Below, in pieces: positions 18,909 to 20,339 of a stretch of 64,000 nt of DNA. The number at the start of each line of letters is the position of its first letter. Positions within the stretch are counted from its first letter, which is position 1. Made by a program: the position numbers and the translations under genes. The DNA is from Escherichia coli. GTDB taxonomy: Bacteria; Pseudomonadota; Gammaproteobacteria; Enterobacterales; Enterobacteriaceae. The stretch is taken from assembly GCF_003790525.1 (NCBI RefSeq), contig NZ_CP033635.1; one strand, written 5' to 3'. The notes below the pieces were generated by a model. It worked only from the letters and a program-made list of their open reading frames with translations. It did no database searches and had not been told where the DNA came from.

Positions 18909-19384
18909 CAGTGGCGTATATTGCCATAGGCAGCAATCTGGCCTCTCCGCTGGAGCAGGTCAATGCTGCTCTGAAAGCATTAGGCGATATTCCAGAAAGC
19001 CGCATTCTTGCTGTTTCTTCGTTTTACCGCACCCCACCGCTGGGGCCGCAAGATCAACCCGATTACTTAAATGCAGCCGTCGCGCTGGAAACCACTCTTG
19101 CCCCTGAAGAGCTACTCAATCACACACAACGTATCGAATTGCAGCAAGGTCGCGTCCGTAAAGCTGAACGCTGGGGACCGCGCACGCTGGATCTCGACAT
19201 CATGCTGTTTGGTAATGAAGTAATAAATACCGAACGTCTGACCGTTCCGCACTACGATATGAAAAATCGTGGCTTTATGCTGTGGCCACTGTTTGAAATT
19301 GCGCCGGAGTTAGTGTTTCCTGATGGGGAGACGTTGCGTCAAATCTTACATACAAGAGCATTTGAAAAATTAAGCAAATGGTAA
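18905..19384 (+). CDS. folK: 6-hydroxymethyl-7,8-dihydropterin pyrophosphokinase
   Basis: 159-aa [22 protein letters not shown]; start overlaps pcnB stop (ATGA). Confidence 0.92.
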
Positions 19385-19544
19385 TTTATTTATATTACGA
19401 ATATAAATATTTTCTGAAAATCACACCGACTCTCTTTCCTTAATAACGATTTTAGTTTAAAAATTTTTTATAGAAACATAATATAAATTCCCGCTGAGAA
19501 ATATCAATCCCATCGCCATACCCTAACTAATTGCACTTGTGAAC

Positions 19545-19579
19545 TTAAATTTACTTAATCTTGAATTAAGTAAATTTAA
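19545..19579. promoter_or_regulatory. Perfect 15-bp inverted repeat in AT-rich yadN upstream region
   Basis: TTAAATTTACTTAAT-cttga-ATTAAGTAAATTTAA, about 175 bp upstream of the yadN start. Confidence 0.45.
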
Positions 19580-19754
19580 TTTGTTCAAAAGCTTCTAAAG
19601 TGCACAATAGGCAACCTAATGAACAATGGTTGTAAATTTTGGTAACAAACATCATTGCTCATTAATATCTAACATTTGTTTCTTATATTCGTGTCATGAA
19701 TAGTTACTCTTCAAACATGTAGTCTGACTAATGGAATTTTATTCAAGGATTTTT

Positions 19755-20339
19755 ATGTCTAAAAAATTAGGTTTTGCCCTGTCTGGTCTTATGCTGGCAA
19801 TGGTTGCAGGTAATGCTTCTGCTGCACTGGACGGTGGCCAATTAAATATCAGTGGTCTGGTAGTTGATAACACCTGTGAAACCCGTGTTGATGGTGGCAA
19901 CAAAGATGGCCTGGTGCTTCTGCAAACTGCAACTGTTGCTGAAATCAGTGCTGGCGTACTGAATGACACCGTAGGTGCTAAAGCTAAACCTTTCAGCATC
20001 ACCGTTGACTGCAGCAATGCAAACCCGAATCCTGGTAGCACCGCAAAAATGACCTTCGGTTCCGTGTTCTTTGGCAACAGCAAAGGGACTCTGAACAACG
20101 ATATGTCTATTAACACGCCTTCTGACGGCGTAAATATTGCCCTGCACAATATTGATGGTTCCACTATCAAACAGGTTCAAATTAACAACCCAGGCGATAT
20201 TTACACAAAAACGCTGGACGCTACGACTAAATCTGCAACCTATGATTTTAAAGCATCCTATGTCCGTGCTGAAGCAAGCCAGGCACCAACTGCTGGTTAT
20301 GTTAAAACCAACACTGCATATACCATTACTTACCAGTAA
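19755..20339 (+). CDS. yadN: Fimbrial major subunit-like protein YadN (chaperone-usher pilin)
   Basis: 194-aa ORF with signal peptide [23 protein letters not shown] and pilin-like C-terminus ...AYTITYQ. Confidence 0.85.

Follow-up and report, generated by a model that had tools for sequence, protein, structure and literature searches.

In Escherichia coli K-12 the yad fimbrial operon begins with yadN; the gap between folK and yadN has been catalogued as a 'promoter island' associated with H-NS (entry 156927_379; PMC3661553), and yadN was found to be H-NS-bound in three K-12 chromatin immunoprecipitation (ChIP) studies, those of Grainger, Kahramanoglou and Oshima (PMC5797941). A 2026 study reported that loss of hns in CFT073 derepressed a yad promoter fusion >100-fold and that H-NS represses yad in EC958 and K-12 as well; according to the same work, serum induces yad by a mechanism beyond H-NS that was left unidentified, Yad is not phase-variable and is a reported virulence factor of extraintestinal pathogenic E. 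coli (ExPEC), and earlier studies cited there tied temperature, oxygen and ArcA to yad control (PMC13245861). Furthermore, over-production of SlyA raised yadN 2.4-fold, and the gene carries no flag for an adjacent LeuO site from systematic evolution of ligands by exponential enrichment (SELEX) (PMC5797941), while non-coding variants 5′ of yadN were associated with expression differences among isolates, with which a reporter fusion agreed (bioRxiv 10.1101/2025.06.10.658842). Our literature search for a yadN transcription start, footprint, regulator site or 3′ ends returned none at base resolution; yadN is among the genes of the Reg-Seq preprint, which reports no result for it, and the terms 'inverted repeat' and 'palindrom' are absent from both the promoter-island paper (PMC3661553) and the 2026 Yad paper (PMC13245861). 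Here we describe a perfect inverted repeat, IR1 (19545-19579), in the folK-yadN gap of a 64,000-nucleotide stretch of E. coli DNA (contig NZ_CP033635.1), which we refer to as the window, and compare it with the corresponding region of other E. coli genomes.

The window matches E. coli SMS-3-5 (NC_010498.1) at 100%, and its yad control region has the SMS-3-5 type allele. Both pcnB and folK lie 5′ of the gap on the plus strand; the last base of the folK stop codon is 19384 and the yadN ATG occupies 19755-19757, leaving a gap of 370 bp, and yadN is followed by genes for a chaperone, an usher and four subunits and then by panB. With base counts of A 130, T 141, C 59 and G 40, the gap (19385-19754) has 26.8% G+C, and in a 200-bp profile it runs at 25-32% compared to 49-58% in pcnB and folK. 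It is 90% identical to the K-12 gap and shares with the K-12 promoter island the locus, the AT-richness and, probably, the many overlapping promoter-like hexamers. A first-pass annotation, made from the sequence alone, had described an AT-rich 370-bp gap of the H-NS-silenced kind, with a perfect 15-bp inverted repeat and with no dedicated regulator encoded nearby. The composition and the repeat are as it described them, and no regulator gene was found among the genes of the yad cluster of SMS-3-5. The silencing holds for the orthologs: the published ChIP data with which the annotation had suggested a comparison place H-NS at yadN in all three K-12 studies (PMC5797941), and hns mutations derepress yad in K-12, CFT073 and EC958. 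The H-NS part is thus already known from the literature on these orthologous regions. By its composition the region of the window belongs to the class of H-NS-silenced promoter islands, and by analogy with the orthologs it would be occupied by H-NS in SMS-3-5 too.

The two arms of IR1 are complementary at 15/15 positions. A perfect short-loop repeat of 15 bp arose in 0/5000 dinucleotide-preserving shuffles of the 370 bp, in which the maximum was 13 bp, reached twice, and IR1 is the longest perfect short-loop repeat within the whole window, the runners-up having 12 bp. The stem contains a single G-C pair among its 15, and a 58-nt stretch that includes it folds at -17.3 kcal/mol (z -6.2) as RNA and at -15.4 kcal/mol (z -7.3) as DNA. 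IR1 is non-random, far past chance expectation.

We searched 5426 complete E. coli genomes with 56 bp around IR1. The SMS-3-5 type, with its perfect 15/15 pairs, was present in 107/5426 genomes. The K-12 type, whose left arm reads TTATTTTTACTTAAT, pairs at 13/15 positions and occurs in ~1268 genomes, and the commonest allele, the BL21/L022 type (~1575 genomes), pairs at 12/15 and has an additional mid-stem G·A mismatch; a further 561 genomes carry the CFT073 gap family. The gap as a whole falls into the SMS-3-5/K-12, CFT073, ST131/EC958, L020-type, CUWW06 and E. fergusonii families, which are 52-63% identical to one another, with CUWW06 reaching 69% against the SMS-3-5/K-12 family; YadN protein identity across the allele families is 87-92%, and folK is annotated beside the gap in every one of them. 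Comparison of individual loci (L002, L007, L011, L013, L020 and L032) likewise separated the gap into at least five or six deeply divergent families. The folK-yadN regulatory region is hypervariable and probably exchanged by recombination, a view drawn from the allele comparison that agrees with the published association between cis variants and yadN expression. A scan of species-representative genomes turned up one locus, from E. coli. Gaps outside E. coli were reached through protein clusters and the contigs encoding them, and on the sequences compared IR1 is an element limited to the yad alleles of E. coli and E. fergusonii.

Across 12 distinct alleles the 35-bp register of IR1 aligns without a gap, and the consensus half-site TTTACTTAA is recognisable in every one of them. 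Within this register the arms change together. In the CFT073 family (TTAATTTTACTAATT-ttcat-ATTTAGTAAAATTAA, 14/15 pairs) two pairs differ from SMS-3-5 in both of their bases, with CTTAA becoming CTAAT in one arm and, in parallel, TTAAG becoming TTTAG in the other: pair 12/24 reads A-T here, against T-A in most alleles, and pair 5/31 reads T-A, against A-T in SMS-3-5 and CUWW06; K-12, ST131 and E. fergusonii have an unpaired T·T at pair 5/31. The three states of pair 5/31 suggest that the same mismatch was mended via the left arm or via the right arm, depending on the lineage. In place of the outer G·A mismatch of CFT073, SCU484 has G-C, its right arm having changed, and 2009C-3133 has T-A, its left arm having changed; both of these alleles have perfect 16-bp stems, and CUWW06 has a perfect 16-bp repeat with a 7-nt loop. 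The K-12 type differs from the SMS-3-5 type by two adjacent bases of the left arm only (TT vs AA), and the 'AA' state at pairs 4/32 and 5/31 is shared by the SMS-3-5 type with the distant CUWW06 family. All CFT073-family alleles sampled, at 82-97% overall identity, have a perfect core of 13 bp, and the ~9-bp core alone is kept in ST131, the GTDB representative, L021, L020 and E. fergusonii, where A-to-G changes produce G·T pairs. Over the 12 alleles, 79.2% of the cells of the helix were paired, compared with 74.3% in shuffles (0/500 reached the observed value) and 31-53% when the partners were slid; the covariation score was 0.203 as against 0.143 in shuffles (0/500) and both-sided changes occurred in 6/18 pairs, all of which must be read as coming from alleles that are few and related, and with a method in whose own trials related sequences could beat all shuffles without any structure.

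These changes bear directly on the proposal of the first-pass annotation that the repeat is a symmetric site for a dimeric or global regulator. Binding of duplex IR1 by a dimeric regulator, by RNA polymerase alpha or by nucleoid proteins (as an UP-like element or an H-NS nucleation site) would put the repeat at about -70 to -36 if TTGTTC-16-CACAAT is a promoter. It would account for the exact dyad symmetry, the 35-bp register that is fixed in most families, the half-site recognisable in all alleles and the promoter-like site that lies immediately 3′ of IR1 in 10/11 alleles, and it is in keeping with the H-NS binding of the K-12 region, the 2.4-fold effect of SlyA on yadN and the implication of ArcA in yad control. 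Palindromic operators, such as the SlyA/MarR-type TTAGCAAGCTAA and the CRP and FNR boxes, share with IR1 its dyad symmetry, upstream position and fixed length. Both arms contain TAAATT/AATTTA, which may resemble the core of the H-NS high-affinity motif. However, IR1 exceeds the usual length of an operator (35 bp, the half-site centres lying ~19-20 bp apart), its half-sites co-vary and most genomes carry an asymmetric version. The half-site conservation expected of an operator was not found, the changes being compensated at pairs 5/31 and 12/24 and at the outer pair, and a fixed protein selects neither for the parallel shift of both half-sites in the CFT073 family nor for a mismatch mended in either direction. 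Moreover, the symmetry is broken in the majority alleles, and yadN has neither a LeuO SELEX flag nor a local regulator gene. By-eye comparison of IR1 with motifs taken from papers (SlyA TTAGCAAGCTAA, TTAN6TAA) gave no convincing match, and neither did a comparison with the CRP, FNR, ArgR, TyrR, CpxR, OmpR, RcsAB, Fur and ArcA consensus sequences, which we do not count as a test. Given arms that co-vary and a perfect form in only 107/5426 genomes, the regulator site of the annotation is left unsupported, and we regard recognition of the duplex by a protein as unlikely.

The complementarity of the arms has been kept through evolution and the half-site has not, which argues that IR1 is most likely a secondary structure of a single strand. 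The reading that we favour, at a probability of roughly 0.38, is that IR1 is a quasi-palindrome that folds into a hairpin and acts in a single strand, most likely as a plus-strand stem-loop in untranslated RNA. The setting would be the control region of a cryptic yad operon, AT-rich and H-NS-silenced, in which the RNA containing IR1 may be either a long yad leader, started from a conserved promoter-like site ~265 nt 5′ of the ATG, or folK read-through. IR1 would work jointly with a second conserved stem, IR2 (19617-19664), and the stability of its own stem, which depends on the lineage (-3 to -17 kcal/mol), may modulate the fate of the transcript. That IR1 is transcribed, which strand is the relevant one and that it affects yad expression are points that we infer.

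Three features favour plus-strand RNA, namely a G·U bias, the long loop of IR2, which fits RNA alone, and the presence of promoter-like sites 5′ of IR1. On the plus strand the non-Watson-Crick cells of the whole helix comprise 13 G·U vs 4 A·C, and those of the 9-bp core are all G·U, although perhaps 3-4 separate A-to-G events among related alleles may account for this asymmetry. Of the two strands, moreover, the plus strand gives the better fold in most of the mismatch-bearing alleles. When 11 alleles were folded together with RNAalifold from 19530 to the ATG, the IR1 core was the sole consensus helix besides a small invariant hairpin at the Shine-Dalgarno sequence and start codon.

Every E. 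coli allele family has kept the second stem, IR2, and so has E. fergusonii, in which its pairing is perfect over 11 bp. The SMS-3-5, K-12 and E. fergusonii alleles give it a local fold of -11 to -15 kcal/mol, 82% of its cells are paired in 11 alleles as against 18-61% when the partners are slid, and one of its pairs is G-C in six alleles, C-G in three and A-U in one. This suggests that IR2 is a conserved RNA stem ~90-140 nt 5′ of the yadN ATG, and its loop of ~24 nt is one that neither a cruciform nor a compact operator would have. The left arm of IR2 is overlapped by a tiny open reading frame (19619-19645; ATG AAC AAT GGT TGT AAA TTT TGG TAA), the start of which, M-(M/I)-N-x-C, recurs in CFT073, E. 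fergusonii, ST131 and L012; no obvious Shine-Dalgarno sequence was seen before it, and the recurrence may be a mere reflection of the conserved IR2 arm.

We also compared promoter-like sites between alleles, using a crude sigma-70 matrix for a positional comparison of hexamers in 11 alleles. The matrix found many promoter-like sites on the plus strand of the gap, and a consensus promoter scan of the gap gave 4 sites vs 3.0 ± 1.6 in shuffles. By the matrix, -10-like hexamers are conserved in position with ends at ~19413, 19482-19484, 19576 and 19608, of which the one at 19576 lies inside IR1 (TTTACT-15-TAAATT). Use of the site ending at 19482-19484 would place both IR1 and IR2 within a leader of ~265 nt. 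Use of the site ending at 19608 would instead leave IR1 as upstream DNA at about -70 to -36, with IR2 at the 5′ end of the mRNA. The best consensus promoter of the SMS-3-5 allele, at 19662-19689, has a -10 hexamer that is unconserved in other alleles. The K-12 gap has CCTATT in place of TATATT at 19684-19689, and it is in SMS-3-5 only that this hexamer makes the gap's best consensus match; by sequence, TATATT is a candidate cis-variant for yad expression.

The perfect form of IR1 in SMS-3-5 is the state of one lineage and of a kind made by template-switch correction. Perfect inverted repeats in non-coding E. coli DNA have been reported as over-abundant and conserved, an observation attributed to such correction (PMC5941160), and IR1 resembles the template-switched quasi-palindromes described by van Noort et al. 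(2003), the Lovett laboratory and Lavi et al. (2018, PMC5941160), in that its relatives are imperfect and their mismatches become pairs through a change in one arm or the other. For IR1 the direction of change is deduced from the comparison of alleles. The sequence features of a quasi-palindrome under correction, imperfect relatives and mismatches converted to the complement, are present in IR1, and the perfect SMS-3-5 form, which fits the published model, was probably made in this lineage by template-switch correction of an imperfect repeat. The main rival to a hairpin with a role of its own proceeds from the same process, holding that IR1 is a neutral quasi-palindrome: AT-rich DNA yields repeats, template switching keeps their arms alike and sometimes makes them perfect, and point mutations degrade them again. 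Its general model has been published for E. coli inverted repeats (PMC5941160). The states of IR1 span the range that it predicts, from perfect (107 genomes) through 13/15 (~1268) and 12/15 (~1575) to the weak cores of ST131 and E. fergusonii, mid-stem mismatches are tolerated in the commonest alleles, and the mending of a mismatch toward either arm, by lineage, is what template switching predicts.

Against neutrality stands the conservation of the arms themselves. Identity between allele families along the gap (mean 0.52) has five peaks: 19399-19420, the best-conserved block of the gap (0.75-0.88); 19515-19525; IR1, at 0.60-0.76 compared with 0.12-0.35 in the segments beside it; a broad block at 19600-19667 that includes IR2; and the ribosome-binding region. 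It is thus the sequence of the arms, and not their complementarity alone, that exceeds both the mean and the flanks, and such an excess is unexplained by switching alone. The 13-bp perfect core shared by all sampled CFT073-family alleles and the perfect 16-bp version in the CUWW06 family, at 69% identity, also speak against a repeat left to drift. We consider neutral maintenance possible, though on the unlikely side.

Several observations count against the hairpin interpretation and keep it tentative, beginning with the small and related set of alleles behind the covariation statistics and the few events that may underlie the G·U asymmetry, an asymmetry that IR2 does not have. Hairpin strength is unconserved among alleles. 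In 57-nt RNA folds it ranges from -16.6 kcal/mol (z -5.8) in SMS-3-5, -14.9 (z -5.9) in SCU484, -13.6 (z -3.9) in K-12 and -12.5 (z -5.5) in 2009C-3133 to -9.8 (z -2.7) in CFT073, -7.6 (z -0.9) in the BL21/L022 type, the commonest, -3.8 (z 0.1) in ST131 (EC958) and -2.7 (z 0.6) in E. fergusonii, and the yad operon of ST131, with its weak IR1, is still H-NS-regulated and serum-induced (PMC13245861). In E. albertii, Salmonella and Pseudocitrobacter, which share the pcnB-folK-fimbrial synteny, the gaps are unalignable and no homologous repeat was found in them. The promoter-like sites at 19662-19689 and 19603-19608 both lie downstream of IR1, and a promoter at either would leave IR1 untranscribed save for folK read-through. 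IR1 is ~175 nt from the ribosome-binding site, which neither IR1 nor IR2 sequesters, and this distance implies no obvious translational control by IR1. Finally, an Rfam scan of 19200-19900 at permissive E-values returned no family for IR1, the top score being 21.6 bits vs a threshold of 54.3.

Structured mRNA 5′ leaders include 5′-terminal stabilising hairpins and A/U-rich RNA thermometers. The region upstream of yadN resembles such leaders in having A/U-rich covarying stem-loops, plus-strand G·U pairs and two conserved helices 5′ of the start codon; it differs from them in that its ribosome-binding site is free of IR1 and IR2 and in that it belongs to no Rfam family. A more specific proposal, which is distinctly doubtful, is that IR1 and IR2 together form an undescribed structured leader of the yad RNA, in which the stability of the stems would set the survival or elongation of the transcript under temperature or host cues, such as serum. 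If this were true, the wide natural variation in stem strength would account for the cis-variation in yadN expression published for different strains. Two co-varying stems of lineage-dependent strength are in any case concrete and inexpensive targets for mutagenesis 5′ of a virulence-associated operon. Should the stems prove inert, the locus would still be a clean natural case of quasi-palindrome correction, with one mismatch mended both ways.

The folding energy of IR1 as DNA raises the further possibility of a cruciform, in which the A/T-only repeat (its one G-C pair aside) would extrude as negative supercoiling rises, absorb torsion or attract nucleoid proteins, and so tie silencing to the environment. 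The perfect 15-bp arm, the 5-nt loop and the AT-rich flanks in SMS-3-5 suit such a structure, as do the DNA hairpin of -15.4 kcal/mol, the fact that complementarity is what is conserved and the reported response of yad expression to temperature and oxygen (PMC13245861). However, the G·T-bearing and mismatched versions carried by most genomes are less extrudable, and IR2 with its 24-nt spacer is left unexplained. Arms of this size are, in addition, short for extrusion in vivo, and we think a cruciform very unlikely.

A hairpin followed by TTTGTT could also act as a terminator or insulator that keeps transcription of the constitutive pcnB-folK operon from running on into yad. As in intrinsic terminators, a hairpin is followed here by a T-rich run, 3′ of a gene on the same strand: UUUGUUC stands 3′ of the stem in the SMS-3-5/K-12 family, 160 nt past the folK stop. 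The stem, however, is nearly pure A/T with its single G-C pair, a consensus terminator scan made no call at IR1, and the tail is unconserved, the U-rich run being missing from other families, among them that of CFT073 (AUUGCAU). Another hairpin with a T-run lies directly 3′ of the folK stop, and folK and yadN are absent from the supplementary text of the Adams 2021 Term-seq study. A terminating role for IR1 is in our view highly improbable.

Three further candidates were rejected. An invertible switch of the fimS kind does not suit arms that are merely 5 bp apart in a cluster without a recombinase gene, and Yad is not phase-variable (PMC13245861). A repetitive extragenic palindromic or bacterial interspersed mosaic element (REP/BIME type), or the end of a mobile element, was set aside on the A/T-only sequence and its one copy per genome. 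A site for CsrA was dropped, since a csrA mutant shows unchanged yadN expression. The features of the region are listed in Table 1.

Table 1. Features of the folK-yadN region in the window (coordinates are window positions; promoter-like sites are candidates).
Feature	Position	Strand	Description
folK-yadN intergenic region	19385-19754		AT-rich; yad control region; ortholog of the K-12 H-NS-bound 'promoter island'
Hairpin directly 3′ of folK stop	19387-19409	+	10-bp perfect A/T hairpin TATTTATATT-acg-AATATAAATA, then TTTTCTG
Candidate promoter-like site	19456-19484	+	TTTAAA, 17-bp spacer, TAATAT; -10-like in 7-8/11 alleles (crude matrix); TATAAT in CFT073 family
Extended IR1 hairpin	19540-19587	+	Outer 5-bp stem TGAAC (19540-19544)/GTTCA (19583-19587), 3-nt bulge, 15-bp stem
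IR1 left arm	19545-19559	+	TTAAATTTACTTAAT; core TTTACTTAA at 19551-19559 paired in 12/12 alleles compared
IR1 loop (spacer)	19560-19564	+	CTTGA; allele-variable: TTTGA in K-12, ATTGA in SX48, TTCAT in CFT073
IR1 right arm	19565-19579	+	ATTAAGTAAATTTAA; compensatory changes with left arm in other allele families
Candidate promoter-like site	19581-19608	+	TTGTTC, 16-bp spacer, CACAAT; -10-like (19603-19608) in 10/11 alleles (crude matrix); block 19600-19610 conserved between families
IR2, second conserved stem	19617-19664	+	Arms TAATGAACAATG (19617-19628) and CATTGCTCATTA (19653-19664); 24 nt between
Candidate, best consensus promoter in SMS-3-5	19662-19689	+	TTAATA, 16-bp spacer, TATATT; sole plus-strand site of the consensus scan
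yadN	19755-20339	+	Yad fimbriae major subunit gene; first gene of the operon

The hairpin at the folK stop has a left arm that is conserved only within the SMS-3-5/K-12 family, and its right arm and T-run (GAATATAAATATTTTCTGAAAA) fall in the block 19399-19420. It could be the folK terminator, another 3′-end element or a -10-like TATAAAT. On the minus strand, TTGATA-16-TATATT at 19480-19507 scores 10/12, the strongest consensus match of the gap, and faces folK; since a deletion has removed its -35 region from the CFT073 family, we judge it probably spurious, of the promoter-island type.

Some alleles differ from the window more drastically. In two loci, L004 (NZ_AP021895.1) and L005 (NZ_CM176579.1), IS1 lies in the gap and a deletion reaching panB has removed all of the yad operon; the insertions correspond to window positions ~19517 and ~19422, respectively, and L005 retains a fimbrial gene remnant. 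The YadN cluster P0029 (L022-L025; window 19755-20339) has 170 amino acids vs 194, its gene being 72 nt shorter than that of K-12; its precomputed Pfam Fimbrial match is faint, and its loci carry the BL21/L022-type gap allele. The ST131 allele (L011, EC958) has no stable IR1, and on its minus strand, ~160-175 nt 5′ of yadN and just past the degenerate IR1 core, lies a perfect 14-bp spacer-less palindrome, ATTTAAATTTAAAT.

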